Shown here: positions 1 to 17,940 of the stretch, piece by piece
Numbering within the stretch: the first letter of the stretch is position 1
How the letters are laid out: each line of letters starts with the position of its first letter
NCBI GenBank assembly: GCA_043816965.1
Contig: JBDRHK010000003.1
Coordinates: 1 to 17,940, forward strand
From: Candidatus Iainarchaeum sp.
GTDB taxonomy: Archaea; Iainarchaeota; Iainarchaeia; Iainarchaeales; JAFCCJ01
Length of the DNA stretch: 17,940 bases
Direction of reading: 5' to 3'
Program-made: the position numbers and the translations under genes
Notes under the pieces: generated by a model
What the model was told of the DNA's origin: nothing
Database searches by the model: none
Seen by the model: only the letters and a program-made list of their open reading frames with translations

Positions 1-764
1 AGAAGGAGCATTACCGCAGTCCTTGCATCACCAGATTCCTGTGCGGCAAGTGCTGCCGCCAGATTTATTGCCGATGACTGGACAGTTCTTGGCTTGAATG
101 CCATCTCTGCCCTCTGCTTCAAAATCTCCCTAAGCTCTTCCGCATTGTAAGGGGGAAAAACCATTTCCTGCTCGCACAAACTGCTTTTTGTTCTCGGGTC
201 CAGCCTGTCCTTGAACATCAAATTGTTTGAAATTCCAATGAGAGAAACACTCCCCTTATCAAGTTCATCATTTCCGCGTGTAAGTGAATAAATCAATTCA
301 TCCAAATCCTTAACCTTATCCACCTCATCAAGGACAACAACAAATTCCCTGCCCTTCCTCACATAATCCAGCAGTTTCTCGTAAACAAATGCCGCGCTGA
401 ACCCCAGAAAATTCTCTTCAGGGTACAAATCCTTAACAATCTTAATCAAAACCCTGTATTTGCTGTTATGGTTCCTGCAATTAACATAGCAGCCCTCAAC
501 ATCCAGATTCTGCTTCACGGAAAAATCCAGCAATTGCTGCACAACATGCTTGGCGACTGAAGTTTTGCCTGTCCCTGTCTTGCCATAAAGGAAAAGATTG
601 TCGGTTTTCTTCCCCTTGAGGGAAAAACCCAAAATATCGCCCATTTCATTTATCTGTGTCTCCCTGAAAGGAAGAATTGGGGGGGTGTAATGGGGTGTTA
701 CAAGGTTCCTGTCCTTAAAAACGGTTTCTTTTGCAAACTCCTTTTCGAATATGTTCTGCTGCAA
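1..764 (-). CDS. cdc6: Orc1/Cdc6 replication initiator (AAA+ ATPase), 3'-truncated by the window edge
   Basis: Not in the ORF track; translated by hand. TTG at 764 follows a GGGGG SD-like run and gives MQQNIFEKEFAKETVFKDRNLVTPHYTPPILPFRETQI... It contains Walker A LFLYGKTGTGKT, Walker B FVVVLDEVD, sensor region LIGISN, box VII DPRTKSSL, FPPYNAEELREIL and GDARTA. Confidence 0.96.
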   Translation of the reverse strand, partial: MQQNIFEKEFAKETVFKDRNLVTPHYTPPILPFRETQINEMGDILGFSLKGKKTDNLFLYGKTGTGKTSVAKHVVQQLLDFSVKQNLDVEGCYVNCRNHNSKYRVLIKIVKDLYPEENFLGFSAAFVYEKLLDYVRKGREFVVVLDEVDKVKDLDELIYSLTRGNDELDKGSVSLIGISNNLMFKDRLDPRTKSSLCEQEMVFPPYNAEELREILKQRAEMAFKPRTVQSSAINLAAALAAQESGDARTAVMLL

Positions 765-991
765 GAATCAGGCCCCCGCCTTAAATTTATTAGCATACCT
801 TATTTGGGGCAATTAGGTTAAAAGAAGCTTCAGTTGTGGAACTGAACCTCTTCCGGTAATGGGCTTTGCTTTTCTTACTGTTTGCGGAAAATAAAATTCC
901 CCGCAAAAAATCAATTTCCCAACAATAGAATATAAATAATGTTCGTAATGCCAATTAATATAACGTTTTTTCGCTACAGGGGTGATAAGAA
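765..991. promoter_or_regulatory. Divergent cdc6/sepF intergenic region, candidate replication origin
   Basis: 227-bp non-coding gap. Inverted repeats TTCAGTT-gtgg-AACTGAA (829-846) and TTTGCGG-N13-CCGCAAA (881-907); AT-rich tract about 905-970; TATA-like TATAAATA (931-938); SD AGGGGTGAT (978-986). The origin role is inferred from cdc6 adjacency. Confidence 0.5.
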
Positions 992-1351
992 TTGGCTTTT
1001 ATGGAAAAACTGATTGGTAAAAAAGATGAAATAGATATTGAGGAGTTCCTCAACAACCTTGATGTTGAAGAGGAGACAATGTATGAGGATGCCGACGCAT
1101 TTGTGAAGCCCATTTCCCTTCAGGGAGATGAGGACAGGGACCTAATTGTCGAGGAAATGAAGAAAGGTAACATAATCCTCGTTAATATTGCGGATCTTGC
1201 AAAAAGGAACGCAATAAGGCTCAGGGACCTTATAAATGGGATAAAGATAGAGGCAGACAAGATTGACGGTGACATAGCGAGGATTTCCACCGACAGGGTG
1301 CTGGTTACTCCCAGCAGGGTAAAAATAATAAAAAGAAGAGAATCTCGCTGA
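992..1351 (+). CDS. sepF: Cell division protein SepF (archaeal DUF552 type)
   Basis: Short amphipathic N-terminus (MAFMEKLIGKK), acidic linker, and SepF core GNIILVNI...IDGDIARISTDRVLVTPSRVKI. TTG start with a GGGGTGAT SD. Confidence 0.9.
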   Translation: MAFMEKLIGKKDEIDIEEFLNNLDVEEETMYEDADAFVKPISLQGDEDRDLIVEEMKKGNIILVNIADLAKRNAIRLRDLINGIKIEADKIDGDIARISTDRVLVTPSRVKIIKRRESR

Positions 1352-1370
1352 AATCAAGAGAGGGCCTTGA

Positions 1371-2177
1371 ATGCAGCTTGATAAGCCCTCATTTTCTATT
1401 TCTTTTACGCGTGAGCAGGCAGATGAACTTGTAGATAGCAGGGTTAGCGCAAAAGGCTGGAATCTCAACAAAGTTCTCCAGGTCAAATCTGTATATCATC
1501 CCTATATCCTGTTCAATTTCCATGGCTTCAGGAAATCAGGGGAGGAAAAGGGAGAGGGCGTAAAAGACGAGATTCAGGAGAAAATGGCCCTTGACGCACT
1601 TACTGATGAATTCAGCGATATGGCATCCAATCTTGGGGAAGAGAAACCAATTGAAAACCAAGTGATTAAGGATGAGGAAATCGAGGCCTTGAACCCCCTG
1701 ATTTTCGAGGAGGAGGCAAAGGAACTCCTTCCTTTAAAATTGTCAGCCAAATTCGATATTCCAAGGGGCAATGTTTTCATAACCGGAATGAGGATGGTTT
1801 ATGCCCCTGAATGGAAATACCTTGTCGAAGTTGACACCAAAACATATGATTTTACAATTGACGCGGTTAATGGTGGCTTGGAGGGGGATGAAAAAATACC
1901 TGTTAGGGATAAAGGCTGGAACGAGATTACAAAGGAAACAATAAGCGAACTTCAAAACCCGGGTGCGTGGGTGAAATATTCCGCCGCCACAGTAACCGGC
2001 ATTGCATCAATGATGGGGGGAACAGAAGAACAGGGCAGATCCAAAAAAGCAAAAGTAGCAACCCATGGAAAAAAATCCCTGCTGAAGGAACTGGCAACTA
2101 ACACAAGAACCCAGATAATAATTCTCGGCATTATTGCGGCAGTGGTAATAATTTTATTTTACTTTGGCCCGAAGTGA
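1371..2177 (+). CDS. Hypothetical protein with a single C-terminal transmembrane helix (tail-anchored)
   Basis: 268 aa, 19 bp after sepF. Acidic soluble body with a VYAPEW...FTIDAVNG beta motif, then a basic linker and hydrophobic IIILGIIAAVVIILFYF at the extreme C-terminus. Confidence 0.75.
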   Translation: MQLDKPSFSISFTREQADELVDSRVSAKGWNLNKVLQVKSVYHPYILFNFHGFRKSGEEKGEGVKDEIQEKMALDALTDEFSDMASNLGEEKPIENQVIKDEEIEALNPLIFEEEAKELLPLKLSAKFDIPRGNVFITGMRMVYAPEWKYLVEVDTKTYDFTIDAVNGGLEGDEKIPVRDKGWNEITKETISELQNPGAWVKYSAATVTGIASMMGGTEEQGRSKKAKVATHGKKSLLKELATNTRTQIIILGIIAAVVIILFYFGPK

Positions 2178-2178
2178 T

Positions 2179-5100
2179 TTACACAAACTGAAACAGGTTT
2201 TTCTGCTCCATCTTATCGTTTTGGAACACCGAATCAACTTCCTGTTCAATTAGTTTAATGCGCTGTTTAATGTAGTCGCTCAGCCCGTATTTAAGAATCA
2301 TCTCATTTGCAATTTTTAGGTATTTCCTTACAGAGCCCTGCGCAATGGTGAGGATTATATTGCCGCTGTCACCGCATTTCCAGCATTTCCCGCTTAACGG
2401 AATGCGCCTGTATTTTGTGTTGCATCTGGTGCAGCGGAAAGTCTGCCTTGAGAATGCCCTTGCGTTTCCTATAATGTCTGGGAGAAAGTGCGAAACCATA
2501 ACCCTCTCAAGAGCATCTTTTTTCTCAACAGCCCTAATTTTTCCCTGCAATTTGGCCTGGGCGTTTATTTTGGATTCCATTGAATCAAGTTGGACATATC
2601 TGGAAACTTTCGGGCCGCCATCAAATGTTGAGGTTGGATGGGTAAAGTTAATCCCGGTATATTGCTCCTTTGTGCCCAATTTGTTGAACACCCTTGGAAT
2701 GGAATCCAAATCAGGAGGGATGAGTTCAGAGCATTTTTCATACAGCTCCAATGGATAACGCTTACAGGTTTCAATCTCATATGCCTCATCATCAATTTCA
2801 GTCGGTTTCAGGGCAACGGTGAACACAAGAGGGGCGTCCATCCTCCCCCCACGCGTTGATGGGAGATAATGCTGGGAAAAGTTAAGCAGGCCATCCATCA
2901 GGAGCATTACTGAATCTTGGTCTCCGTCACAATCATAGATGGCAAGGTTTCCAAACCCACCTATGTATGTTTTGTTCCCTTCAACCATCAAATCATACAC
3001 GAATTTTTCCTTCGAATGAGCCTTTTTTATCTCCTTTATCTTGTCCAATGCAAATGAGCCGATCTTTTTAACTCTTTTAGATCTGAACACCTTGCTTTTT
3101 TTTATCCTGGCAAACCTTTTCCCCCTCCTGCCAAAAAGAAATTTTCCAATGGTTAATAAGTCTTCAGAATAAAGCCTAATCCCCCAGCTTTCCAAAGTCT
3201 TTATTTTGCCCTTCTTTTCATAGAATTCTTTAACTATGCCGGTATTAATTGTTCTTTTTTCATGAAACAGGTGCGGGAAACAACCAAGCATGCTGCACAC
3301 TAAACCAACTTCATTTATCAGGTTTTTGTTCACAGAGACTATCTTTATGCTATTTGAATCTATGTAGCCATCCCCGACAGCATAGCTCCCAACTAATGCG
3401 CCCTGACATTTTTTATCTGTGTTAAAGAAAACAGCAGGAACATGTTTGTTCTTTGCGTTGCTGCCTGTTTTCAGAATTTTTGTGAACAGTTCATAGTATA
3501 TTCTTCCGCTCAAGGTAATATAGTCCAAATTTTTTCTTTTGCTGGAAGATAACTTTCTATTAAACAACTCCGCTATATTCCTGCTAATTTTTTTTGAAAT
3601 TTCCCTTTCAGCGGATACAAAATTAATCTGGTAAACATACTTTTCCCTTTTTTTATTATCAGTTGTTCTCGCATACCCGTCAGCCAAAAAATAACCAATA
3701 ATCTCGGCAAATTCTTTATTTAACGGGATTGTTATCGGCAGAGTGCTTTTTTGTTTATTGTATCCGATTGTTGCATCCTTGAAGTGGCCGGCTTCCTTAC
3801 CCAGTTCCTTCATCATTATTTCAAATAGATCCAATGGAACAGAATCAAAGTCTATTGCAGTATGTATGGATTTTCCTTGTTTATAGTTGTTATTCAAATA
3901 TTTTCTGTATCCCGTCTTTTTAGCGAGTTTCCAGCAACCACCATATTTTTTGACCAATTTTTTAATATTTGGTTTTACATTATGCACTCTCAATTTTGCT
4001 TTTTTTCTCCGGCTATAATTCTGAATGAACCATTCAAGAACATTTATCTGTTTTAGTTTATTTACGGAACTGAACTTTGAAAGAGACAACAATGAATCGC
4101 CTTCCTGCAGCTTACTAACAGGTCTTTTAGCAATTCGCTTTCCATCAAATACCAATAGCTCATGGTTGCCTGTTGCCGTAATTTCCCTCCCGAACATTGT
4201 CCTGATTGCAAACATTGTTTTAGGAGACATCTGCTTTAACAGTGCCTTAACCTTCTCCTTTTTAATTAAGCCATTTTCATCAACCGTGTATGTAAGGATA
4301 TTTTGCAATGGGATAACCTCCCTTTCGGTCCCATCATCAAATGAATCAATAGGAACAATCTTCGTATGATTCGCGTTTTCAATTAATACCGGTGTTTTGC
4401 CGGTAAGGCAATTTCTTCTTTTAGTAAGGTGGAAGAAGGGATGGGCAAAACAAAGCCTTGCCTTGCTGAAACCTATTATCCTCCCGACGATGGCTGCAGA
4501 AGTATGCGGGGCCAGACCCATCACAAGCTCCCCCACCATATCCTGAGTTGAACCTTTTTTGTAATATGGCTCAAGGCCGTAGAACTTAACCAATAAATCA
4601 TCAACAAACTTTGTTACGCGGATGAAAAATTCAACAGAATCCTCATTGATTATAATGTCCTGAGGGAATATCTCGAGCAATTGCTCATCATTTTCCAATG
4701 GCTTTCCATCAACATCCTTCTCATATCCCAGTTCCTTCATCTTTGCTGGGCTTGTCCCAATTTCCCTTGGCTTGAAATGTGTCAGGGGGGCATTAAGCAT
4801 CTCAAATCTGATTGTTGCATCGCGGAATATGTTAAGGTTGCGGTTTGCCCTTAAAATCCCCTTTTCAAGTGGTTCGGCAATCTTGCTCTCATTTATCAGG
4901 CCTTTTACCCCCTTCAGCGTTTCCGGCATTTTCACCTTCAATGAAGTGATTGCTTTTAACAGCAATTCATCAATATTTACCTTTCTTTTGCTGAAGGCAT
5001 CAGCGTCAGCGGAACATTTGCTGCATTTTTTGGTTTCTGAGAGATTGCCACATCTCCCGCAAAGGTAAACCTTTGTTGCCCTTGCCCCGCACTCAGGGCA

Positions 5101-7095
5101 GTTTGCAAGCGGGACTGTTTTGCCACAATCAGGGCACTTGTAAAATGCCATCTCAACCTCAATCTCCCCCCTTCTCCCGCCCCTTAATTCAGATGTTTCA
5201 GAAGCCTTGTTTATTGAGCGTGTTGACCCCCCATAAATGCCTATTGGAAAAAGAACATGCGGGTTTCCAACCATCTTCCTTGGCCTTGCGGCCTCAGGCC
5301 TTCCCATTCTTGTTCCTATGAAAGTTCCGCACTTGTCCCTGATTTCCATCCCTGAAAGTTTTGAGAGAATCTCAAGAACACTTCCCTCTTCAGGAACTTT
5401 GCCGAGAGAAAGCCCGCCAAAAGTCTTGACAAAAGAATAGGCAAGATTCTTCCCAATAACAATTTTTCCCTCAATGATTTTGTGCGGAAGTCCGATAGTC
5501 TCAAGCAGATCCTTAAGATCTTCCGAATGTTCCATTTTCAGGGCAATAATTCTGTTTTCATCAAAAATTTTATTCCCCTTTCTAACCGCCCCAACCAGTT
5601 CAACAACATCCTTGTGTTTAAGGAGAGAGTAATAGTGTGTGAATTCCGGATGCAAGGGTATTTTGAGTTGCAGGGATAATTCTGCGGCGGTAAAGCCGTC
5701 AATCGCCTCAGGATTTTTTAAAATTTCATCAGTATCTATCCCCTCAATTTGCCTTCCCTTGTTCAGTGCCTTCTCAAGCTCCAGCACCCACCATTCCACA
5801 CAATAGCCGACAGGCATTAGAGGGTGCGCACTTTTCCTGAAATCCCCGTAAGAAATAAGCAAATCCCCCAAAAAGATAATTTCCTTAAGTTGGTTCTTTA
5901 TCTCCTGGGCCTCCTTTATTGAGGTTATTTTCCTCACCTCTCCGCTCAGGAGTTTCACTATCGGCCCCTCGATTGAATCGCAGGGGAATATCTCGGCGGA
6001 CTTCCCCGGCCTTTCAACCTTCATTTGCGTTCCTACTGCAATAAACTCATCAAGAACATACATTGTTGCAGGATGTATTGCCTTTCCCATTATGCCTGTA
6101 TTTCTGGAGCGGCCATACCTCAGCCTGAAACCGCCTGGTTTCATAGGGTATGAAAAAATAGGCCTGCCGGCGGCAATTCTTGTAAGGTAGGAAAAATTTT
6201 CCTTGATGGTCTTGTCTTTGTCCCCGCTCTTACTAACTTTGATTATTCCTTCCAGCCACTTCCAATCCAGTTTGAGCATATTTGCAAAGGTGAGTATTTT
6301 CATTGCCTTGAGTGCCACCCCCTCGCAGATAACAAGGCACATCCCTCCCCTAACCCTATTGGACGGAATCCTTTCCAAATCCTTAAATGCAGTGACTTCC
6401 CGTTCCTCAGTTGGTTCGCCATTTATGCAGACCGGGCAGCCCCTTATGATTTTCCTGACCTCCTCAGGATGCAGCTTGTACTGCCTTGTAAAAATATCGT
6501 CATAAATATTGGTTTCCTCAACATATCTCTCGATTTCTTCTTCAGTTGGTTTATATCTTTCCAGACCCATGAGTTTCCTTGCATAGTCCCCCAAAATCAG
6601 AGGAAATACTGTCGCAGTTCCCCCTGCAGCCCTAATAGGCCCTGCAAAGTAAATATCCACAAATTCAGAGCCATCGAAATTTTTGCTGATTTTTACAGAG
6701 GGCACCCCATCCAATGGGGCAACAACTACCCCTTCAGTAACAAGCACAAGGGAAGTCTTCACCGCCTGTTCCAGCCTTTTCTCCCTATCAGGAATATTTA
6801 CCCAAGGATTATTCTCAATTATTTCCTTGAAAATTTTGAAAATGGTCTTTGTCCTGTCCCCGTCCATCTCCTTGTAAATCTTCCTGTATCTTTCAGCAAT
6901 CCCAGGGGGGCCTGTAATTTTCTCGCACCTGTCAGCCAAATCAGTTGTTGGGGTGGTTTCAACTTCAAGGCTTACATCCTTTCCCTTAGCCCTTGCCTTT
7001 TTGGCTATGGCTAATTGCTCATTAACCTGTTTGGTTAATTTTTTGTAATAATTGACCACGTGTATAGGGGCATCAATTTTCAAATCAAATGACAT
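2179..7095 (-). CDS. polC: DNA polymerase D large subunit DP2, intein-containing precursor
   Basis: DP2 motifs TEGVVVAPLDG, YFAGPIRAAGGT, GGFRLRYGRSRNTG, GTRMGRPE, LAPHTSA and KRRN/CDGD; Cys-rich Zn modules; C-terminal PIP box QKNLFQFV. ATG 7095 is preferred over TTG 7110 because GAGGGGAGG precedes it. Confidence 0.98.
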   Translation of the reverse strand: MSFDLKIDAPIHVVNYYKKLTKQVNEQLAIAKKARAKGKDVSLEVETTPTTDLADRCEKITGPPGIAERYRKIYKEMDGDRTKTIFKIFKEIIENNPWVNIPDREKRLEQAVKTSLVLVTEGVVVAPLDGVPSVKISKNFDGSEFVDIYFAGPIRAAGGTATVFPLILGDYARKLMGLERYKPTEEEIERYVEETNIYDDIFTRQYKLHPEEVRKIIRGCPVCINGEPTEEREVTAFKDLERIPSNRVRGGMCLVICEGVALKAMKILTFANMLKLDWKWLEGIIKVSKSGDKDKTIKENFSYLTRIAAGRPIFSYPMKPGGFRLRYGRSRNTGIMGKAIHPATMYVLDEFIAVGTQMKVERPGKSAEIFPCDSIEGPIVKLLSGEVRKITSIKEAQEIKNQLKEIIFLGDLLISYGDFRKSAHPLMPVGYCVEWWVLELEKALNKGRQIEGIDTDEILKNPEAIDGFTAAELSLQLKIPLHPEFTHYYSLLKHKDVVELVGAVRKGNKIFDENRIIALKMEHSEDLKDLLETIGLPHKIIEGKIVIGKNLAYSFVKTFGGLSLGKVPEEGSVLEILSKLSGMEIRDKCGTFIGTRMGRPEAARPRKMVGNPHVLFPIGIYGGSTRSINKASETSELRGGRRGEIEVEMAFYKCPDCGKTVPLANCPECGARATKVYLCGRCGNLSETKKCSKCSADADAFSKRKVNIDELLLKAITSLKVKMPETLKGVKGLINESKIAEPLEKGILRANRNLNIFRDATIRFEMLNAPLTHFKPREIGTSPAKMKELGYEKDVDGKPLENDEQLLEIFPQDIIINEDSVEFFIRVTKFVDDLLVKFYGLEPYYKKGSTQDMVGELVMGLAPHTSAAIVGRIIGFSKARLCFAHPFFHLTKRRNCLTGKTPVLIENANHTKIVPIDSFDDGTEREVIPLQNILTYTVDENGLIKKEKVKALLKQMSPKTMFAIRTMFGREITATGNHELLVFDGKRIAKRPVSKLQEGDSLLSLSKFSSVNKLKQINVLEWFIQNYSRRKKAKLRVHNVKPNIKKLVKKYGGCWKLAKKTGYRKYLNNNYKQGKSIHTAIDFDSVPLDLFEIMMKELGKEAGHFKDATIGYNKQKSTLPITIPLNKEFAEIIGYFLADGYARTTDNKKREKYVYQINFVSAEREISKKISRNIAELFNRKLSSSKRKNLDYITLSGRIYYELFTKILKTGSNAKNKHVPAVFFNTDKKCQGALVGSYAVGDGYIDSNSIKIVSVNKNLINEVGLVCSMLGCFPHLFHEKRTINTGIVKEFYEKKGKIKTLESWGIRLYSEDLLTIGKFLFGRRGKRFARIKKSKVFRSKRVKKIGSFALDKIKEIKKAHSKEKFVYDLMVEGNKTYIGGFGNLAIYDCDGDQDSVMLLMDGLLNFSQHYLPSTRGGRMDAPLVFTVALKPTEIDDEAYEIETCKRYPLELYEKCSELIPPDLDSIPRVFNKLGTKEQYTGINFTHPTSTFDGGPKVSRYVQLDSMESKINAQAKLQGKIRAVEKKDALERVMVSHFLPDIIGNARAFSRQTFRCTRCNTKYRRIPLSGKCWKCGDSGNIILTIAQGSVRKYLKIANEMILKYGLSDYIKQRIKLIEQEVDSVFQNDKMEQKNLFQFV
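2932..4410 (-). mobile_element. Intein with LAGLIDADG homing endonuclease (493 aa) in DP2
   Basis: In-frame insertion splitting KRRN|CDGD. Block A CLTGKTPVLI, block B ITATGNHELL, LAGLIDADG blocks IIGYFLADGY and LVGSYAVGDGYI, block F FVYDLMVEG; it ends ...NLAIYD before the +1 Cys. Confidence 0.96.
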
Positions 7096-8617
7096 TTTTC
7101 CTCCCCTCAACGTAGAATTTGTTTTCCCTTATGTTTCTTGTTTTAAGTTCGAGTTCTGTCGCAATTCCCGGGGTAGGGACATGGCCAAGCTCAAGCTGGA
7201 AATCGGTTTGTGTCTGCCAGGTTCCGCAGTTTATTACGCTGCAGCCCTTGTACTGGGCATAACCTGTATGGTGCATGTCTCCCCCGAAATAAATATCTGG
7301 TTCCTCGCGTATAAGCATATAGTCCTTCTTCTCAGGAACATATGGCTGTCTCATTCCATAGCTTGGCATCAAATCCCTTCTCTTAAGCATTTCAATTATT
7401 GCCTTATGCGGTTCTCTTGCACTAAGAAAATTTACTGAGGAATATAAATCGTGCAGTGAAGCCCCGTGGTAAAACAGGCACTTTAAACCCTCAATCTCAA
7501 CCCAGCCAGGGGAGCCTATGAAATGGACATTGCCCCTTCCTGAAAGTTCATTCACAAATTCCTTAGGAATAGCTGGTTGGGGGTCGGCTCTCCTCACGGC
7601 ATCATGCTGCCCTGGGCAAATAATAATCTCAATATATTCCGGAACCTTTAGCATAAGCTGCGTGAATTTTTCATATTGCTTGTAAATATCCTTTATCGCC
7701 AGTTCATCAAATTGGTCAGGGTAAACTCCCACCCCGTCAATATTGTCGCCAACAACCGCCAGGTATTTTATCTTCCCTATCCTCTCAAGTTCCTTTTCCG
7801 AACTCGTATTCCCGTTCAGCCATGAAATGAAGTCATTGAATTCCTTCTCAATGAAAAGCTTGCTTCCTATATGGAGGTCGGAAATCGCCATAATGCTCAA
7901 ATCCCGTTCCACGCTTTTGATTGGCCTGTTTGGCAAATCAGGCAGGAAAATCTCCTTTGCAATCACCAAATCTTCTGAGAGTTTTGAGCCCTTTACCCCG
8001 ATAACATCGTCCATAATAACGCTTTGCGCAAACTCAAATAGCTGCTTCTCATTATTTGACGCAAGCACGATTATCTTCGAATCCAAATCCTCAACCTCAA
8101 ATGCAAGGTTCCCTTTCTTGCTCATCCATTTTCTGTTGACCATTCCGATAAACTCGACATCCCTGCCTTTGGTAGACCTTACTACTCTAGAAATCGCCCT
8201 TGGGTCAAAGCCCTGCCTCTGCCTCAGAACTGATGAAAGAAACTGGAATTTATCGCGAAACATACTTAAAAAATCTTTTATTTTGCCTTCGCTGTAGCTC
8301 TTTCCCGTAATATCATACTCCTCCATTATCCTCAATTTCGGGTCCAGATCCCTGGCTTCAGCATTGAAACCGCTTTTCCTTACAATAACAGTTTCCTCCA
8401 CCCCCTTGATTTTTGATTCCTTCCTGAGCAGAGATGCCTTAATCTTCTTATCATCAATAATCAGTTCGCCCTTCTCCAGAAATTCGTCAAGCAGCTCCCT
8501 GTAATCTTTCAGGGAGGAAAGCAGGGCAATTGCATTTGATTCAATAAGTAGCCCCTTCTCATCGGCGTACTCAATTACTTCCTTTTCAACAGGCCCTGTT
8601 ATCAAACTTTTCCCCAA
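7085..8617 (-). CDS. polB: DNA polymerase D small subunit DP1 (proofreading exonuclease)
   Basis: OB fold followed by calcineurin-like motifs SDLHIGS, GDNIDGVGVYPDQ, PGQHD, YHG, GDMH and GTWQTQTDFQ...PTPG. Its stop overlaps the DP2 start. The exact TTG start is uncertain. Confidence 0.96.
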   Translation of the reverse strand: MGKSLITGPVEKEVIEYADEKGLLIESNAIALLSSLKDYRELLDEFLEKGELIIDDKKIKASLLRKESKIKGVEETVIVRKSGFNAEARDLDPKLRIMEEYDITGKSYSEGKIKDFLSMFRDKFQFLSSVLRQRQGFDPRAISRVVRSTKGRDVEFIGMVNRKWMSKKGNLAFEVEDLDSKIIVLASNNEKQLFEFAQSVIMDDVIGVKGSKLSEDLVIAKEIFLPDLPNRPIKSVERDLSIMAISDLHIGSKLFIEKEFNDFISWLNGNTSSEKELERIGKIKYLAVVGDNIDGVGVYPDQFDELAIKDIYKQYEKFTQLMLKVPEYIEIIICPGQHDAVRRADPQPAIPKEFVNELSGRGNVHFIGSPGWVEIEGLKCLFYHGASLHDLYSSVNFLSAREPHKAIIEMLKRRDLMPSYGMRQPYVPEKKDYMLIREEPDIYFGGDMHHTGYAQYKGCSVINCGTWQTQTDFQLELGHVPTPGIATELELKTRNIRENKFYVEGRKNVI

Positions 8618-8626
8618 AAAAACCCC

Positions 8627-8884
8627 TTACTTGCTTTTTTCCCTCAATCTTTCAAGTTCGGAGATTATGGTCCAAATTTCGGTTCTGGTGTGGGATGGCA
8701 TGTTTATGTCATTGCTGATATCATCCAGGCAGTAGATTGCGGAGGTAATCCTGAGCCCAATCTCCTCCTTTGACATAATTTTCTGCTTGGCATCATCAAC
8801 TGATCTTCGGATATTCCTTGGGACAGTAGTATCCTCAATAACCTCCTCCATCAAATCAGCCACATCACTAAGTTCATTATCCAT
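8627..8884 (-). CDS. UPF0147 family protein
   Basis: Family signature DTTVPRNIRR...LDDISNDINMPSHTRTEIWTIISELE. ATG 8884 is preferred because the ORF-track GTG at 8893 lies inside the SD GGGGTGAT. Confidence 0.92.
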   Translation of the reverse strand: MDNELSDVADLMEEVIEDTTVPRNIRRSVDDAKQKIMSKEEIGLRITSAIYCLDDISNDINMPSHTRTEIWTIISELERLREKSK

Positions 8885-9043
8885 TCCAATCACCCCTTTG
8901 CCAGATGGCCTAATAAAAGGTCAGCTGTAAAAAACCGGATTCAATTCAAAAACAGTCATTTTTCCAATAACCCCCGAAAGTAGTTCAACTTTCTTATCGG
9001 TTAACTGAATAATATTAAATAGGAAATTAATTTAAATTAACTG

Positions 9044-9937
9044 TTATTTCGGCTTATTCCATTCATTCTTCAGCCCGCCCGATTTTGGGTTCTCAAAAAA
9101 CACATCTGCGATTACAAGATTCCGTTTTTTGAAGTCAGCATATTTTTTCCCCCTTAGCAAATAGTCATACATGAAAGCACGGCCGAGGTGAATATGCTGG
9201 TTGCGCCCTATTGGTTGGGCAACAAGCTCGCCAAAAGCATTCCAGGCGAAGGCTTCACCATCCCTAGGGTCATAATTGTGGGAAGCAGTATTCACCACAA
9301 TAATGCCGTCAACAGCAATAGATTTTCTACCGTTGCCATATTCCCGTGATATGCCCCCTAAATATGTCGGAATTCCCATAACAGAAATTTCCTTTCCAGC
9401 CGCATCCTTCATTCTTTTAAGATTTGGCTTATCTTTCCCAAATTTCGATTTCGGAAAAAATTCCTTGGGAATTGCTTTTTTAGAATAATTATTTCTCACG
9501 AAATCTACAATTTTTTTGTAACCGGTTAATCCAATCATTGCGCCCACTGCGTTGCTTCTTACCACCAAATCGCGGTCCAAAATAATTTTTTTTAATTCAG
9601 GTATTGTCTTGGATTGGATTAAATTTCGCAGTATAACTGAATGCTTACCTCTCCATTCAGGATCCGGGTGTTTTGATAAGAATTTTTTTGATAAGAGCAA
9701 TATTATTTCCTTTGCCACGCCACTTTTTTCACCAAAATTATTTTTCATCATATATACTGTGCCAACCAGATAACCAGCTGCCTGATCAAATTCACGAGGG
9801 TTTTTTGAGTTCAAACCATCAATCAGCTTTTGCATGTGTTCCCTTCTGCGCCCCATTTTTTGCATAAGCTTAGCTAGATTGGTAGTTCTTCCAATAGACC
9901 TCTTTTTTTTAGGTTCGGGCTTACCTTTCTGACGCAT
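9044..9937 (-). CDS. Hypothetical basic protein with possible HEAT-like repeats
   Basis: Long ORF filling the gap. K/R/P-rich N-terminus; HEAT-like segments LIDGLNSKNPREFDQAAGYL and LKKIILDRDLVVRSNAVGAM. ATG 9937 has TTTAAA 24-29 nt upstream and no SD, so it may be leaderless. Alternative start TTG 9943. Confidence 0.7.
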   Translation of the reverse strand: MRQKGKPEPKKKRSIGRTTNLAKLMQKMGRRREHMQKLIDGLNSKNPREFDQAAGYLVGTVYMMKNNFGEKSGVAKEIILLLSKKFLSKHPDPEWRGKHSVILRNLIQSKTIPELKKIILDRDLVVRSNAVGAMIGLTGYKKIVDFVRNNYSKKAIPKEFFPKSKFGKDKPNLKRMKDAAGKEISVMGIPTYLGGISREYGNGRKSIAVDGIIVVNTASHNYDPRDGEAFAWNAFGELVAQPIGRNQHIHLGRAFMYDYLLRGKKYADFKKRNLVIADVFFENPKSGGLKNEWNKPK

Positions 9938-9981
9938 GAACAAAATAGAGTTTAAAACAATTTAAATGATATTCCATCTTT

Positions 9982-10965
9982 TCATTTCCCCTTAAAATTC
10001 TCAACCGCTTCTTTCCCAAGAATCTCCCCAAGATCAGAATCAATTCCCTCCCCTGAAATAATCCCCTCAGTTTCCTTCCTCACATTTTCCATCTCTTTTT
10101 CGGTTGCAATATCCGCCTTATTAAACACAACAATAACCTTCTGCTTGAAAATCTTTCTCACCTCTTTCAAAAGATTCATCTGCTCCTTCAGCTGGTAACC
10201 GCACATTTCGGTTGGGTCAACCACAAAAACAATCACTTCCCCCAAATGCCTGAGGGCGGCAATCGCCCTCTTCTCAACATCATTTCTTTTGCTCATCTCC
10301 CTATCCAATAATCCCGGGGTATCCACCACCTGAATATCATGGTATTTATAAGAAAAATAACCGAACTTAACGCCTTGTGTTGTGAAGGGATAGGGCGCAA
10401 TTTTCGGCCTTGATGTTGTAAGGCGGGAAAGGATTGTGGTTTTCCCTGTGTTTGGAAACCCGGCAAGTATTACAGTTAAGCACTCAAGTTTCAGTTTCGG
10501 GAGCCTCCTTGCATTAATCACAGCCTCGCGGACAATTGAAAGGCTAGCTTCAGCATTTGAAACAATTGAATCAGCCCTTGCAAAAAACCTCTTCCTTTCG
10601 GAAATTATCTTTTCCTTATCATCATGCCTGAAAATTTTCCGAATAGTTTCAACCATCAGTTTCTTCAATAAGTTCGAACTTTTCTCCAGATGCGCAAGCG
10701 CCTGTTTCAATGAGTCCAAATCAACAAAGGAAGAAAGCAATTCAAGGTGAAATTTATGCATTTCCTCCAGATTGGGAAACAAAACAGAGACCGCATGCAA
10801 TTTTGCGGATAATTCCTTGCCCATAATCGCAACTTTCTTAGATTCCTTATTCTTAACCTGCCTTTCCTTATCCCTGGTTTTTTTCATTCCTGCGGCTACT
10901 TTCAGTGCCTTCTTTATGGAAGAATCCATTAAATCCCTTTTTGTCGGAACATTAGCCAAATTCAT
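9982..10965 (-). CDS. NOG1-family (Obg-like) GTPase
   Basis: N-terminal helical NOG1-type domain; G1 GFPNTGKT, G2 YPFTT, G3 DTPGLLDR, G4 NKAD; NOG1 motif RNDVEKRAIAALRHL. ATG 10965 follows GGGGT; alternative start GTG 10977. Confidence 0.92.
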   Translation of the reverse strand: MNLANVPTKRDLMDSSIKKALKVAAGMKKTRDKERQVKNKESKKVAIMGKELSAKLHAVSVLFPNLEEMHKFHLELLSSFVDLDSLKQALAHLEKSSNLLKKLMVETIRKIFRHDDKEKIISERKRFFARADSIVSNAEASLSIVREAVINARRLPKLKLECLTVILAGFPNTGKTTILSRLTTSRPKIAPYPFTTQGVKFGYFSYKYHDIQVVDTPGLLDREMSKRNDVEKRAIAALRHLGEVIVFVVDPTEMCGYQLKEQMNLLKEVRKIFKQKVIVVFNKADIATEKEMENVRKETEGIISGEGIDSDLGEILGKEAVENFKGK

Positions 10966-11088
10966 TGCAAACCCCACATAATATTTAAATCATTAGCTTC
11001 ATTAATTGTTAGGTAGTATCATTAATCAATATTACTGTAAATATGGCGGATATGCGCTTTTTTTGGTGTTTTGAAAGGATTGGTTCTA

Positions 11089-12168
11089 ATGTTCGACAAT
11101 CTGGCTAATAAACTTTATGGGGGAAATTACAGGAAATTGCTGATAATCCCGGCCATATTTTTTGTTGTTTTCCTTGTGGCAATATTCATTTTTCCAGGAA
11201 TTGAACAGGGTTTAGACCTTACAGGGGGAACAATGATAGTTGCCAGGGGCGACCTGCCCATGGATGCGGAAAGGATGGAAACCCTCCTTCTGGAAAAATA
11301 CCCCTTGCAGGAATTGCGCGTAAGTTCAGTTTCCTCGCCCACCGGCTATGGGGCAGTGATCCAGTACAGCAAAAATCAGGATTTGTTTGATGCTGAGGAA
11401 AGAATTGCCAATGCAAAATTCTTGCTTTCAAACAATCCAGAACAGGCAAAACAAGAGGCAATATCTGCAATGGCCCTTCTTAGTGATTACATATCCCCTC
11501 CATCAACAACCAACCTTACTCCTGAGCAGACAGTGGATGTTGCAACTGACACATTTATCAAGGCAAAGGAATTATTCGAACTTTCAATACAGAACCTGAT
11601 AAGTACTGAATTTAATCTGGGCGATAACGCAAAATTCCAAAAAACCGAGATTGGCCCCTCGCTGGGGGAAAGTTTCTGGGAAAGCGCCATAATGGTTGCG
11701 GCCATGGCATTTGTCTCGGTTGTAATAGTTATATTTATTTTTTTCAGGGAAATAATTCCTTCAGCCGCGGTTATTGGTGCAGCAATATTTGACATAGCAG
11801 GGGCGCTTGCACTTATGGCGATTTTTGGAATTCCGCTATCCCTTGCATCAATTCCAGCTCTTCTAATGCTGATTGGTTACAGTGTTGACACAGACATCAT
11901 GCTGACCACAAGGCTGCTTAAGAGGAAGGAAAGAAGCGCAAGGGAAAGGACAGTTGATTCAATGAAAACCGGGCTTACAATGACATTTACCACAATCGCG
12001 GCATTGACCTCGATGCTAATCCTCGCATACCTTGGGCAAATATTTATTATTTTCCAGATAGCGGCGGTATTGCTTTTCGGCCTTTTCGCGGACCTTATTT
12101 CAACCTGGTTCATGAATGCGCCTGTGCTTTTGTGGTATGTGGAATCAAAGAAGGGGGGAAATGAATGA
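11089..12168 (+). CDS. secF: Protein translocase subunit SecF
   Basis: GLDLTGGT after TM1, IGPSLG, and the archaeal signature LIGYSVDTDIMLTTR; six TM helices. Start is ATG 11089 or TTG 11071. Confidence 0.95.
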   Translation: MFDNLANKLYGGNYRKLLIIPAIFFVVFLVAIFIFPGIEQGLDLTGGTMIVARGDLPMDAERMETLLLEKYPLQELRVSSVSSPTGYGAVIQYSKNQDLFDAEERIANAKFLLSNNPEQAKQEAISAMALLSDYISPPSTTNLTPEQTVDVATDTFIKAKELFELSIQNLISTEFNLGDNAKFQKTEIGPSLGESFWESAIMVAAMAFVSVVIVIFIFFREIIPSAAVIGAAIFDIAGALALMAIFGIPLSLASIPALLMLIGYSVDTDIMLTTRLLKRKERSARERTVDSMKTGLTMTFTTIAALTSMLILAYLGQIFIIFQIAAVLLFGLFADLISTWFMNAPVLLWYVESKKGGNE

Positions 12169-13844
12169 GGGAACTCCTGAGCAACTGGAAAATTCTTCTT
12201 TTGATTTCAATGCTGATACTCTCATTAGGGCTGATTATGTTCAAGGGAATCTCCCTTGGAATTGATTTTAAGGGAGGAACCTTATTCCAGATAGAGCTGG
12301 AAAGGGAGGCAGAGAGTGTTGCCCAATTAAACGCTGTAAAGCAGACAATCCAGCAAAGAATGGACTGGACAGGATTAAGGGACACAATAGTCACAACTGC
12401 AGGGAACAAATATGTAATTGTGCAGATTGCGGAAACCGACCCTGAACAGGTTGAAAGGATGGAGGGATTGCTGAGAAGGCAGGGGAAATTTGAGGCAACT
12501 TTGGATGGAGAGGCCCTTTTCACAGGTTCTGACATAATCCAGATATACAAGGACAGCGCAAACGGTTATGGTGCCTTCCAGAAAGACACATTAGTTGGAT
12601 GGAGGCTGCCATTCCTCCTTAAGGAGGAGGCGGCCAAAAAGTTCACCAACGGAGTGTTCCATCGCTGCACACTTGACACATTCGACCCATTAGGGCAGGG
12701 AAGCCAGTATGATTGTGATGTCACATATTTCTTCATTGACAGGCCTGATAATGCAGTCCTTATCCTTAATCAGGACTTGTATGAGGCTGATAGGCAGCTT
12801 CTGCTGCAGGGAAATACATCCAATGACATTCCCGCAGACACCAGAATTGAGGACCTTTTTGAGAATGCCGCATTGCCACATATTCTGGTTGGCGATAATG
12901 GCCTGACCACTGAGCAGAAATCAGAATTGTCCTTGCTTGTATCAACCAATGGTACGGCAATAATACCCAAATACCTTTCCACAACTGTCCAGAATGATTT
13001 GGAGTCAATGGGCTTTAAGCTAAAAGAGGTGGACTCATCCACTGAGGGTTATCTCTTAAACCCGACTGAGTTTGGCACCCAGACATATGCCTCGCAACTG
13101 CCTGTGCCATGGGTATGGCAGGCAACAGGCGCAAGGCAGGTGATTGCATTAACCCCTGGAATTGCTAACCTTGAGCCATATGTTGGCGATGTTTCACAGG
13201 CGAAGATTTTCTCCAGGCTGTTTATTGAGGGAACAACCCAGACACAGGAAGCCGCCATCGAGAACCTCCAAAACCTTTCCATCATACTTGAATCAGGCTC
13301 ACTCCCTATTGGGGTGGAGAGCATTTCCAAGGAAACAATTTCCCCATTCCTTGGGCAGGAATTTTTGCAGAATGTCTTTTTCATTGGAATAGTTGCGCTG
13401 GTAGTTGTTGCATTGGTTATTTACATCCGTTACAGGAAATTGAGATTAACTGTCCCAATTCTATTTACCGGGATGAGTGAGGTCTTCATTATCCTTGGCT
13501 TTGCCGCTTTCATCAATTGGAACCTTGATTTGGCTGCGGTTGCAGGAATTCTTGCCGCGGTTGGAACAGGGGTTGATGACCAAATTGTCATTACTGATGA
13601 ACTTATGAAGGGCGAGATTTCCGCAGACACCTCCCTTTTGAGCAGGGTAAAGAGGGCATTCTTTATCATAATGGTGGCCGCTGCAACAACCATTGCAACA
13701 ATGTTGCCGATTGTTTTGTTCGGTTTTGGCCTTGGAAAATTGGTTGGATTTGCAATAATCACAATAACAGGGGTTTTGATAGGGGTTTTCATTGCAAGGC
13801 CGGCATATTCAGAGATTGCAAGGTACATCCTTTCCAAATACTGA
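12165..13844 (+). CDS. secD: Protein translocase subunit SecD
   Basis: LGIDFKGGT, QGKFEA, LESGSLP, ISPFLG and GTGVDDQIVITDE. ATGA overlap with the secF stop. Confidence 0.95.
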   Translation: MRELLSNWKILLLISMLILSLGLIMFKGISLGIDFKGGTLFQIELEREAESVAQLNAVKQTIQQRMDWTGLRDTIVTTAGNKYVIVQIAETDPEQVERMEGLLRRQGKFEATLDGEALFTGSDIIQIYKDSANGYGAFQKDTLVGWRLPFLLKEEAAKKFTNGVFHRCTLDTFDPLGQGSQYDCDVTYFFIDRPDNAVLILNQDLYEADRQLLLQGNTSNDIPADTRIEDLFENAALPHILVGDNGLTTEQKSELSLLVSTNGTAIIPKYLSTTVQNDLESMGFKLKEVDSSTEGYLLNPTEFGTQTYASQLPVPWVWQATGARQVIALTPGIANLEPYVGDVSQAKIFSRLFIEGTTQTQEAAIENLQNLSIILESGSLPIGVESISKETISPFLGQEFLQNVFFIGIVALVVVALVIYIRYRKLRLTVPILFTGMSEVFIILGFAAFINWNLDLAAVAGILAAVGTGVDDQIVITDELMKGEISADTSLLSRVKRAFFIIMVAAATTIATMLPIVLFGFGLGKLVGFAIITITGVLIGVFIARPAYSEIARYILSKY

Positions 13845-13845
13845 T

Positions 13846-14322
13846 TCATAAAAATCCGGAAAAATTAGTGATGCCTGTTATCCGCATTGTTAAGTAATAC
13901 CATAAAACAAGGATAAATGCAGTTGTTGCAAACCAGCTCAGAATATGCAAGGGTTCAACAATCCAGAATCCGAACAATTCCCCCCCCAGAATCACAAGAT
14001 AAATCCTGAAAAAGTTAAGCACAAGAAGGCTAACTGAACCTGCGAGGAAAATCCCGACCTTCTTTTTTATTTCCGGCTTCTTCAGCGAGAAAATTATTGC
14101 CGCAAGTATTATGCTGCTCACTAAGCCTGTGCAGGACGGGCTTATTTCAAAATTGCCGCCATCTGAAATGATAAGATTTCCCGCAACTTCAAGGCCCAGA
14201 AGCCCTGCCTCAATCGATGCAATTGGTTCCTGCAGCAATGGCAGGTTTGAACTGACCAATAATGCCTCAAGCACAAAAAATACCGCAAAAAATTTCAGAA
14301 CAAACCAGAATATGCCCTTCAA
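13846..14322 (-). CDS. Archaeosortase/exosortase family transpeptidase
   Basis: Small polytopic membrane protein with FEISPSCTG (catalytic Cys), LNFFRI (Arg) and EPLH (His), in the order typical of the exosortase family. Confidence 0.85.
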   Translation of the reverse strand: MKGIFWFVLKFFAVFFVLEALLVSSNLPLLQEPIASIEAGLLGLEVAGNLIISDGGNFEISPSCTGLVSSIILAAIIFSLKKPEIKKKVGIFLAGSVSLLVLNFFRIYLVILGGELFGFWIVEPLHILSWFATTAFILVLWYYLTMRITGITNFSGFL

Positions 14323-14323
14323 T

Positions 14324-14848
14324 CTACCACGGAACCTTTTTAAGTTTTATTTTGAATGCCAGATAATTCGTCATTTTGTGAATTATTATTGTGGCGGCAC
14401 CAATAAGCAGGGCCTCCCAGAATCCCGGGAGGTAATAAATGGTTCCCAAAATCATTCCCCCGATAACGAAGTCCAATTGGTCAAGGAATAAAACTTCAGT
14501 CCCCCTGGGGATATTGTTTCGCCTCTTGAAGAAGCTCCCTGCCATGTCACCGAGAATTGCGCCAATTGACAGTGCAAAGCCAAGCAGCAAAAAATGAGGG
14601 CTGATTCCGGCCGTAAGGGCGGGAAAGAAGTACTCGAGAAGAAAGGCGCTGGCAGTGCCCAAGCCGATTCCTATTGAGGTTCCCTTAAAGGTTTTTCCTG
14701 GTCCGAAGATTGGTTTTCCATCAATAAACTTGATGTTCAAATCAAAAGGGGTTTTCCCCCCGAAGAGCATTGCCCCTGAATTGGCAATATACATCGGAAT
14801 TATGTAAATCAATATTTTGATAAGGAAATCCAGCAAGAGAATCAACAC
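14324..14848 (-). CDS. carS: CDP-archaeol synthase (CDP-2,3-bis-O-geranylgeranyl-sn-glycerol synthase)
   Basis: PMYIANSGA, DGKPIFGPGKTFKG, GDMAGSFFKRR, LDQLDF and C-terminal KKVPW are CarS/DUF46 signatures. Confidence 0.95.
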   Translation of the reverse strand: MLILLLDFLIKILIYIIPMYIANSGAMLFGGKTPFDLNIKFIDGKPIFGPGKTFKGTSIGIGLGTASAFLLEYFFPALTAGISPHFLLLGFALSIGAILGDMAGSFFKRRNNIPRGTEVLFLDQLDFVIGGMILGTIYYLPGFWEALLIGAATIIIHKMTNYLAFKIKLKKVPW

Positions 14849-14932
14849 TTTCTAGTATTTTAAATCCACTAAAGATTATAAACAGGGGAACAAATAAAAT
14901 AACTATTGGTCATAGTTTTTGATGGTGATTCT

Positions 14933-15835
14933 GTGCGCAATCTCATAATCCTTTCACTGGTTTCCCTTGCGGCATTGGTGGTAATTGTGCTGGTTTTAAG
15001 TGTTGCAATCCCCGCTGCATTATTTTCAGGCCCGGCATTGTTTGAAAAAAGCATTGCCGTAATCCCCTTAAAGGGGGAAATATTCTCCTCCTCTGATGGC
15101 TATTCCAGGAATTACACCGCAGAGGAATTGGTTAAGGTAATAGATGAAGCCAGCAATGACCCTGCCATCGGGGTGATTTTCCTTGACATTGACAGCCCTG
15201 GAGGGGGGGTTGTTGCAACAAAGCAGATTGTTGCAAAAATTAGGGAAGTGGATAAGCCGGTTATTGCATATATAGGGGATGTGGGGGCGAGTGGTGGTTA
15301 TTATGTTGCGGCAGCGGCAGATGAAATAATTGCCGATGAGGATTCCCTTACAGGGAGCATAGGCGTAATTTCAATGGTATATAGCATGGTTGAGCTTTTG
15401 GACAATCTCGGGGTTGAGGTCACAACAGTAACCGCCGGAAAGAATAAGGATATCGGCAGCCCCTTTTCAGAACTAACTGAGGGGCAGAGGAAGATGCTGC
15501 AGGAAATTGTCGACCAGGCCATGGAAGGATTCAAGGGGGACATAATTGAATTCAGGGGGGATAAGCTGGATATGGCTGTTTTTGATGAACTCACTGACGG
15601 AAGAATACTTTCAGGAAGGCAGGCATGGAAGGCAGGTTTGATTGATGGCTTAGGGACAAAGGAATATGCATTTGAACGGGCGGCTGAATTGGGCGGGATT
15701 GAGGGCGAACCAATATTTGAGATTTATGGCAAGGGGGAATTAACTATTTTTGATATTTTTACCCAGGCAGGAAGTTCCTTTGGCAATGGCATAAGTTCGC
15801 GCATGCTTCCCTCAAATGAAGGCCTAAAGTCCTAA
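14933..15835 (+). CDS. sppA: Signal peptide peptidase SppA (peptidase S49, short form)
   Basis: N-terminal TM; IDSPGG, GASGGYY (catalytic Ser), TGSIGV, GKNKDIGSPF (Lys) and DGRILSGRQA. GTG 14933 follows GGTGAT; the ORF-track start is 14906. Confidence 0.94.
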   Translation: MRNLIILSLVSLAALVVIVLVLSVAIPAALFSGPALFEKSIAVIPLKGEIFSSSDGYSRNYTAEELVKVIDEASNDPAIGVIFLDIDSPGGGVVATKQIVAKIREVDKPVIAYIGDVGASGGYYVAAAADEIIADEDSLTGSIGVISMVYSMVELLDNLGVEVTTVTAGKNKDIGSPFSELTEGQRKMLQEIVDQAMEGFKGDIIEFRGDKLDMAVFDELTDGRILSGRQAWKAGLIDGLGTKEYAFERAAELGGIEGEPIFEIYGKGELTIFDIFTQAGSSFGNGISSRMLPSNEGLKS

Positions 15836-16540
15836 TAATGACCCAACCGCAACAATAAGTACCGCACTAATTCCGCCTGCAAGTGTTGCTAGGAAATTTA
15901 CCTGCATATTGTTCAAAAGCTTCTTTCTCTCAAAAACCGCACCAAGTAAACTGTCCACCAATGAGCCGATGATTCCAGCGGCCACAATTGCAATTGCCGG
16001 AAATAAATCCCTGACTGCGAGGAAATAAATTGCGCCTATCATCAGTGCCCCGGCAAAACTTGCCGCAAGACCAAGCCTGGTGATTCCCCCATCAGTTCCT
16101 GTTTCCACTCTCTTCAATGTTGTAATCAGCTTTGGCTTTTTGGGGGAAAGCATCCCGAATTCGGAGGAAACAGTATCTGCCAGTGCCGCAGATATTGCCC
16201 CGAAGAATGCAATCTGGTAACCAAATAGGATTGCAATAAGGGCCCCGCCGGAATTGCCGATTACATTGGCGCTGGTTCTCTTGCCATGCTCGCTGCCCAT
16301 TTTTTTTCTGGCATACCTTGTGGAGAGCTCAGCCACAACAAACATTACAACAAGGACAAAAAAATCAACAAGCCCCAATTCGCCCCCCCTGATAAAAATT
16401 GCAATTCCCACAATATTTGCGGCAATTACCCCCTTAAGGTCAAGGGCATTCCTCCAGAGGGAGATTAATGAGAAAAGAACCAGCACAATTACTACAATCG
16501 ACAATTCATATACGGGCGGAAAAAACGCCATTGCACTCAC
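15824..16540 (-). CDS. DUF92 (TIGR00297) integral membrane protein
   Basis: RTSANVIGN, ADTVSSEFG, GTDGGITRLG, DSLLGAVFE and NNMQVNFLAT. GTGA overlap with the rps3ae stop. Confidence 0.9.
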   Translation of the reverse strand: MSAMAFFPPVYELSIVVIVLVLFSLISLWRNALDLKGVIAANIVGIAIFIRGGELGLVDFFVLVVMFVVAELSTRYARKKMGSEHGKRTSANVIGNSGGALIAILFGYQIAFFGAISAALADTVSSEFGMLSPKKPKLITTLKRVETGTDGGITRLGLAASFAGALMIGAIYFLAVRDLFPAIAIVAAGIIGSLVDSLLGAVFERKKLLNNMQVNFLATLAGGISAVLIVAVGSLLGL

Positions 16541-17142: not shown

Positions 17143-17147
17143 AATAA

Positions 17148-17252: not shown

Positions 17253-17260
17253 AATAACCA

Positions 17261-17836: not shown

Positions 17837-17940
17837 TTATAACCACTTTTGGAATAATTTAAAACCCTTTCAGGCCCCTTCCTGCTCTAACGAAACAGGA
17901 AAGCATACAAAAATTGCACTAATAATCTCTCCCTGGAAAG

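Follow-up and report, generated by a model that had tools for sequence, protein, structure and literature searches.

How an intein that ends in Asp leaves its host protein is the question raised by the locus described here, a 17,940-nucleotide stretch of Candidatus Iainarchaeum sp. (assembly GCA_043816965.1, contig JBDRHK010000003.1, positions 1 to 17,940), which we refer to as the window. In it, the gene for DP2, the large subunit of DNA polymerase D (PolD), carries an intein whose last two residues are Tyr-Asp. Based on its sequence and those of its relatives, we consider it likely that this is a functional and mobile class 1 homing intein of the LAGLIDADG type, that it belongs to an old and widespread clade of Asp-ending DP2 inteins, and that it would be released through cyclization of the terminal Asp. 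Published work is cited by PMC identifier, in each case for individual passages of the paper.

The listed open reading frame (ORF; 2179-7110, minus strand) starts with TTG at 7110 and comprises 1643 codons with no internal stop (P0001), while the public database copy (P0002) has 1638 residues and begins five residues later, at the ATG at 7095. The precursor matched Pfam PolC_DP2_N, PolC_DP2_central and PolC_DP2_cat at E values of 1e-95 to 2e-122, and DP2 chains in the Protein Data Bank (PDB) at 2e-292. We set the intein boundaries by alignment to the intein-free DP2 chains of Pyrococcus abyssi and Thermococcus kodakarensis, with which P0001 aligned from residue 304 to 901, up to KRRNC, and again from 1393 to 1632, resuming at N-CDGD. 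The minus strand at the C-terminal junction (2940-2920) reads ATC TAT GAT TGT GAC GGA GAC, or I-Y-D-C-D-G-D. The sequence and alignments thus bore out the first-pass annotation, which had described an intein in DP2 with a Tyr-Asp end and no block F His; the span it had marked, 2929-3000, runs from Cys+1 through block G and almost the whole of block F. Two alternative placements of the C-terminal end were rejected: ending the intein at the Asn of GFGN would make Leu the +1 residue, and that Asn is unconserved in the clade, while a junction moved by one residue would deprive the a-motif of PolD of its conserved Asn or Cys.

The intein matched Pfam Intein_splicing (PF14890) with 49.1 bits against a cut-off of 35.8, over profile positions 22-148 of 155 and thus short of the C-terminal end, and Pfam LAGLIDADG_3 (PF14528) with 27.8 bits against a cut-off of 22.5. 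Both LAGLIDADG motifs (GYFLADGYA and YAVGDGYI), with their acidic residues present, aligned to the LAGLIDADG domain of PI-PkoII, the Pol-2 intein of T. kodakarensis, which is the closest solved structure by sequence (PDB 2cw7, E 4e-14). Canonical splicing residues are present at Asn-1, Cys1, the block B T-x-x-H, block F Asp473 and Cys+1, so that the class 1 nucleophiles at positions 1 and +1 and the class 1 Thr-x-x-His of block B are all in place. The C-terminal His-Asn and the block F His of class 1 are replaced by Tyr-Asp and by Lys480 (2973-2971), the latter at the position where related Asn- and Gln-ending inteins carry His. As rare endings, Gln, Asp and Glu still fall within the published definition (PMC4031507), so the ending makes the DP2 intein atypical without removing it from class 1. 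Assignment to class 3 was rejected: the class 3 triplet has Trp in block B, Cys at block F position 4 and Thr at block G position 5, with no nucleophile at position 1, whereas the DP2 intein has Asp at block F position 4 and starts with Cys.

To place the Asp ending among DP2 inteins, we compared the window intein with its relatives. A search with the intein region returned 23 DP2 proteins with homologous inteins (43-56% identity), and every one of them with the C-terminal junction present ended in Tyr-Asp or Phe-Asp. When 1.84 billion representatives were searched without filters, 955 matches at E up to 0.001 were obtained; they brought in Asp-ending inteins from DP2 hosts whose exteins read CDGDED, including one labelled Lokiarchaeota. 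We also scanned the GTDB species genomes with a degenerate DNA pattern for G-x-G-x5-D/C-D-G-[DE]-[QE]-D (the slash marks the junction), which occurs once in the window, with no match expected there by chance. The 42 matches in the species genomes comprised 26 true Asp-ending DP2 junctions and 16 chance matches, 15 of them in bacterial genomes and 1 in a haloarchaeal genome. The true matches carried DPANN labels (Iainarchaeum/Diapherotrites, Micrarchaeota, Undinarchaeota and Nanobdellati) as well as Asgard and euryarchaeal ones, the labels outside DPANN being Hodarchaeota, Wukongarchaeum, Atabeyarchaeia, Promethearchaeota, Alkanophaga and Archaeoglobales. Iainarchaeum-like inteins ending in Asp also occurred on two DP2 contigs (L019 and L050) from bins labelled Falkowbacteria bacterium and Thaumarchaeota archaeon, and these contigs are probably mis-binned.

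Deduplication left 70 distinct inteins at the DP2 site: 40 Asp-ending, 12 Asn-ending, 12 Gln-ending and 6 Arg-ending. These counts are not frequencies, because the sampling was biased towards the query. In a maximum-likelihood tree built from the first 110 and the last 50 residues of the splicing domain, less the final two, all 40 Asp-ending inteins lay on one side of a branch with SH-aLRT support of 95, together with one long-branch His-Asn intein (P0200), and the window intein fell within an all-Asp subclade of 26 rows (SH-aLRT 95). The Tyr-Asp end is therefore not a singular oddity of this locus, since the clade holds at least 40 distinct Asp-ending DP2 inteins. Within it, Asn-1, Cys1, the block B Thr, the terminal Asp and Cys+1 are each conserved in 40/40, so that of the Tyr-Asp pair, whose conservation the annotation had proposed to check, the Asp is invariant; at the penultimate position, 33 have Tyr, 4 Ile, 2 Val and 1 Phe, and none has His. 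The block F His position holds Lys in all 40 Asp-ending and all 6 Arg-ending inteins, and His in 11 of 12 Asn-ending and 7 of 12 Gln-ending inteins. Block F position 4 is Asp in 40/40 Asp-ending and 10/12 Asn-ending inteins, Asn, Ser or Cys in Gln-ending ones, and Cys in 6/6 Arg-ending ones. The block B His is present in 35 of the 40 Asp-ending inteins and replaced by Gln in 5 (L017, L052, P0014, P0021 and P0317); these five read T-x-K-Q and so lack all three usual catalytic His. Two mini-inteins of 196 residues, without an endonuclease, still end in Tyr-Asp or Phe-Asp.

The hosts on the C-terminal side of the junction vary, with 14 of the 40 Asp-ending inteins occupying CDGDED hosts. Co-variation with the extein, in the sense that CDGDQD would occur only with Asp endings, was rejected, as CDGDQD is a trait of the host lineage that is also found in intein-less relatives. 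Some DP2 proteins (P0017, P0018 and P0152; L017 and L057) read CDGEQD, with Glu for the second catalytic Asp, the residue reported as essential in Thermococcus PolD (PMC7708050).

To assess selection on the clade, we examined codon usage and substitution rates. Across 27 loci (26 genomes and the window), the terminal Asp is encoded by GAT in 17 and GAC in 10, the block F Lys by AAG in 14 and AAA in 13, the penultimate Tyr by TAT in 16 and TAC in 7, and Cys+1 by TGC in 13 and TGT in 14. This synonymous variation at conserved sites indicates that selection acts on the protein and not on the DNA. Nei-Gojobori dN/dS ratios were calculated for nine close pairs, a tenth having been dropped because one locus yielded no intein sequence. 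The ratios were 0.10-0.40 for the splicing domain (6 of 9 pairs with unsaturated dS) and 0.11-0.35 for the endonuclease (7 of 9 pairs with unsaturated dS). These results demonstrate purifying selection on the relatives of the window intein, the closest of which is 55-56% identical to it.

The genome itself (G000; 1.34 Mb, 109 contigs, 86% complete) contains nine further intein C-termini, all Asn-ending (7 His-Asn and 2 Ser-Asn), and the block F His is present in 8 of the 9. There is thus no general bias of this genome away from Asn, and the Asp is particular to the DP2 intein. The nine inteins lie on contigs C4, C5, C9, C15, C40, C42 (two), C72 and C90; the one on C90 precedes TDGD, and both Ser-Asn inteins (C15 and C42) are followed by Cys.

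The simplest objection is that the Asp codon is an assembly or sequencing artefact for AAT, or that the intein is dead and DP2 a pseudogene, with replication left to the family B polymerase (PolB). GAT differs from AAT by one base, the site is uncovered by reads, and the genome has one PolB gene, an intact-looking open frame of 812 residues. The run search found no sequencing run with at least half of the words (best shares 0.15, 0.09 and 0.07), and in the contigs of four sequencing runs no piece spans 2932-2934; run X2 contained identical fragments elsewhere in the DP2 gene, including 3402-3544 within the intein. However, Asp is the last residue in every one of the 40 distinct clade members, which come from independent assemblies, and it is written with either of its codons; this conservation indicates that the terminal Asp of the window intein is not an assembly error. 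A dead intein in a pseudogene also agrees poorly with the unbroken 1643-codon frame, the intact DP1 gene (Pfam DNA_pol_E_B 6e-12, Metallophos 5e-8), the purifying selection in relatives and the endonuclease-free mini-inteins that retain Asp. The 86%-complete genome yielded no second DP2, both matches to the catalytic domain being halves of one gene. We give the artefact or dead-intein explanation hardly any probability, and regard it as already all but refuted.

We next considered how such an intein could splice. The first two steps would be an N-S acyl shift at Cys1 and transfer to Cys+1, both relying on canonical residues. For the third step, release of the putatively splicing-competent intein, we propose that the carboxylate of the terminal Asp attacks its own backbone carbonyl to form a cyclic anhydride, which would then be hydrolyzed to leave a C-terminal Asp. 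The active site would have been rebuilt for a carboxylate in place of a carboxamide, with Lys for the block F His and Tyr, Ile, Val or Phe for the penultimate His. By alignment, Lys480 would lie near the last carbonyl, where it could pair with and orient the Asp carboxylate or protonate the leaving amine, and Tyr492 may form the hydrogen bonds otherwise made by the penultimate His; the occurrence of Ile and Val at this position suggests that the Tyr hydroxyl is not essential. For the PolII intein of P. horikoshii, a distance of 3.4 Å is reported between the block F His and the last residue's carbonyl (PMC8229266). It is established peptide chemistry that Asp-Xaa bonds are cleaved when the Asp carboxylate attacks the carbonyl of the same residue, the resulting cyclic anhydride being opened by water (PMC7897204). 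For Glu-, Gln- and Asp-ending inteins, a 2014 review states the same mechanism with that residue cyclizing, "although other mechanisms are possible" (PMC4031507). The anhydride route is already put forward in print as the default for Asp-ending inteins. The 2014 review also describes Gln-ending PolII inteins and rare Asp-ending inteins, as the first-pass annotation had stated.

Among known systems, the PolII inteins of P. abyssi, P. horikoshii and Methanoculleus marisnigri are found in the same host protein at the same KRRN/CDGD site (PMC8175363, PMC7708050), and they likewise have the class 1 layout, with Cys1, Cys+1 and a last residue other than Asn. They end in His-Gln and keep the block F His (PMC8229266), whereas the window intein has Tyr-Asp and Lys. 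In addition, the two Pyrococcus PolII inteins are minis of 166 and 185 residues, in contrast to the window intein with its LAGLIDADG endonuclease, and the window intein lies across the support-95 branch from the Gln and Asn groups. A natural C-terminal Asp occurs in the RIR1 intein of Carboxydothermus hydrogenoformans, which is bacterial and resides in a different host protein, ribonucleotide reductase. This intein was reportedly found to splice by Amitai and co-workers in 2004 and is said to have been described as unique. The study (Amitai, Dassa and Pietrokovski 2004) is cited by title within PMC4031507. PI-PkoII, whose host is a family B polymerase and not DP2, has the C-terminal block YVYDLSVEDNENFLVGFG, compared with FVYDLMVEGNKTYIGGFG in the window intein, and carries Glu for the block F His. 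A chemical analogy is provided by the self-processing module of RTX proteins (FrpC, 'clip-and-link'), in which an Asp side chain cuts the following bond to give a C-terminal Asp anhydride, proposed to be openable by water or by a Lys amine (PMC7078468). The analogy extends to the chemistry alone, as the RTX module has an unrelated fold, a Ca2+ trigger and an Asp-Pro bond, and does not ligate exteins.

Several points weigh against release by Asp cyclization from a working intein at this locus. In the 2004 study, the Carboxydothermus Asp-ending intein reportedly still cleaved at its C-terminus with Ala, in which case cyclization would not be the sole route. PI-PkoII, an intein of a family B polymerase, has Glu at the aligned block F position and presumably ends in Asn (the alignment stops four residues before its end), so that a missing block F His is not diagnostic in itself. 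An Arg-ending sister group at the same DP2 site has Lys at the aligned block F position, and Arg cannot form an anhydride; release without cyclization of the last residue may thus be possible in this scaffold. The selection described above was measured on other clade members and not on this copy, given that its nearest relative is only 55-56% identical. With a genome that is 86% complete and contains PolB, there may be a hidden second DP2 or a reliance on PolB. The lack of any assembled piece across the Asp codon counts on the same side.

The Arg-ending group leads to a different account of the third step. In this alternative, which we regard as unlikely, the intein splices, and the block F Lys, with or without water, resolves the branched intermediate in place of Asp cyclization. 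The Lys would either promote hydrolysis, by general acid or electrostatic catalysis, or itself attack the scissile carbonyl as a nucleophile, and the last residue would have been chosen for its fit and charge, not as a nucleophile. The distribution of Lys fits this account, being present in every Asp- and Arg-ending intein and in 0/24 Asn- and Gln-ending ones (His 18, Asn 5, Thr 1), and the block F His that it replaces is close to the last carbonyl in the P. horikoshii intein mentioned above. In the tree, the Arg clade groups on the Asn/Gln side (SH-aLRT 97), which indicates at least two origins of the Lys, both accompanied by loss of the terminal amide. In a metagenome scan, 17 of 18 matches were real Arg-ending DP2 inteins, and all 16 Arg-ending inteins with a visible block F have Lys just before the last strand. 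However, two independent origins permit no statistics, the alignment of the Arg-clade Lys crosses an insertion of 3-4 residues and is less certain, and the terminal Asp is invariant in 40/40 with both codons used, which suggests that the residue itself matters. We also considered a combined scheme, slightly less probable again, in which the Lys is a catalytic partner that opens the terminal anhydride to leave an internal Lys-Asp isopeptide in the excised intein, much as in the RTX 'clip-and-link' reaction, and in which a Lys-dependent resolution is shared by Asp- and Arg-ending inteins that acquired the Lys independently.

The Arg-ending clade (P0078, P0090, P0149, P0152, P0222 and P0313; L054-L059 and L061-L071) has junctions such as LWGNxLLQPR/CDGDQD and NNQILTIR/CDGDED, with Cys at block F position 4, and includes full-length members of about 510 residues and minis of 177-192 residues. 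A word-based search with an Arg-ending mini-intein returned 4 proteins only, and the DNA pattern scan was needed to see the family. The Arg N-epsilon would be at the same ring-closing distance as the amide nitrogen of Gln, and a change from Gln (CAR) to Arg (CGR) would take a single base.

To evaluate mobility, we compared the intein with its surroundings and its host phylum. The nearest relative of the exteins (P0057, 1145 residues), with an identity of 89% over the N-extein and 96% over the C-extein, is intein-less and reads KRRN-A-DGDQD, with Ala at +1. At E up to 1e-20, a match was found in 19/215 genomes, 16/79 genera and 6/58 high-quality genomes of the phylum, and none in the only other species of the same genus. 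The G+C content is 36.2% in the intein and 44.4% and 44.6% in the exteins. Patchy presence, an intein-less nearest allele and a G+C content 8 points below the exteins are together consistent with a mobile homing element. They fit an entry of the intein into this lineage after its split from the sister species, or a loss from the sister, and the intein probably reached this genome by homing.

The intein interrupts the NxDGD a-motif of PolD between N and C, which is the standard PolII/DP2 site; the two Asp of this motif are essential for catalysis, and its x (Cys963) tolerates Ala (C963A) (PMC7708050). The Pyrococcus PolII inteins have the same flanks, KRRN and CDGDED (PMC8175363). The first-pass annotation had placed the insert in the catalytic motif, and the alignment confirmed that the N and C of NxDGD, the motif as given in PMC7708050, are separated. 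Of 109 intein-less DP2 relatives, all free of an intein-sized gap (among P0057-P0156), 31 have Ala directly after KRRN, 31 Ile, 16 Cys, 14 Val and 1 Phe; the other 16 did not match the motif. The Ala, Ile, Val and Phe alleles indicate that the polymerase can do without the Cys of NCDGD, in agreement with C963A (PMC7708050). DP2 alleles without Cys, Ser or Thr at +1 cannot hold a splicing intein and may therefore be immune to invasion. The unspliced junction D-C-D-G-D (2920-2934, minus strand) reads as the three-Asp metal-binding motif DxDGD of RNA polymerases and thaumarchaeal PolD, as this motif is given in PMC7708050.

Such a position invites the idea, raised by the first-pass annotation, that the Asp end makes splicing slow or conditional (on pH, redox state or metal) and that the host thereby gates PolD activity. 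The Gln-ending PolII inteins of P. abyssi and M. marisnigri do splice slowly, and faster with Asn (PMC4031507), and, to splice, the PolII intein from P. abyssi requires reduction of a Cys1-Cys+1 disulfide (PMC8175363). The precursor junction described above mimics DxDGD (PMC7708050), which might link it to regulation. However, the spread is patchy across genomes and genera and breaks off within the genus, and the nearest allele is intein-less, whereas a regulator that benefits the host would be expected to persist. The patchy, mobile distribution fits a selfish homing element, and we consider gating by the host very unlikely.

The positions of the DP2 gene, the parts of its intein and the neighboring genes are compiled below.

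Table 1. Features of the window, with positions counted from its first nucleotide.
Feature	Positions	Strand	Description
Cdc6/Orc1 gene	3-764	minus	downstream of DP2
ORF	1371-2177	plus	no Pfam match
DP2 (PolD large subunit) precursor gene	2179..7095	minus	1638 residues from ATG 7095-7093
C-extein start	2914..2931	minus	CDGDQD; Cys+1 (2931-2929) and both catalytic a-motif Asp residues
Intein	2932..4410	minus	493 residues, Cys1 (4410-4408) to Asp493 (2934-2932); P0001 residues 901-1393
Block G	2932..2958	minus	GFGNLAIYD; penultimate Tyr492 (2937-2935), terminal Asp493 (GAT, 2934-2932)
Block F	2956..3003	minus	FVYDLMVEGNKTYIGG; Asp473 at 2994-2992
LAGLIDADG homing endonuclease core	3361..3702	minus	motifs IIGYFLADGYA (3702-3670) and LVGSYAVGDGYI (3396-3361)
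Block B	4153..4173	minus	TGNHELL; Thr80 and His83 of the intein (TGNH = intein residues 80-83)
DP1 (PolD small subunit) gene	7085..8617	minus	directly upstream of DP2, overlaps DP2 start
ORF	9044-9943	minus	no Pfam match
NOG1-type GTPase gene	9982-10977	minus	
SecF/SecD gene pair	11071-13844	plus	

We found no description of an Asp-ending DP2 intein clade in the literature searched, in which subscription journals were thinly covered and supplements lay outside the search; one paper counts 80 PolC/DP2 inteins, and its supplements may list their end residues (PMC4760082). Asp-ending inteins as such are known in print, and what deserves attention is the clade as a whole, in which the Lys and Tyr changes are fixed. 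As far as we found, the case for Asp-ending inteins has so far rested on one bacterial example, in which the release step was never settled. Judged from its sequence, the window intein is most likely a working example of this rare and little-studied kind. At least 40 diverged natural Asp-ending inteins, among them minis of 196 residues, with Lys fixed in place of the block F His and Tyr in place of the penultimate His as partner changes, provide a comparative and mutational series on how a carboxylate replaces a carboxamide in release. Protein engineering could also benefit from an intein leaving behind a plain C-terminal Asp or a reactive anhydride. The clade sits in the catalytic loop of a replicase that is essential in the archaea tested so far, and the splicing efficiency of its inteins thus bears on replication in DPANN and Asgard archaea.

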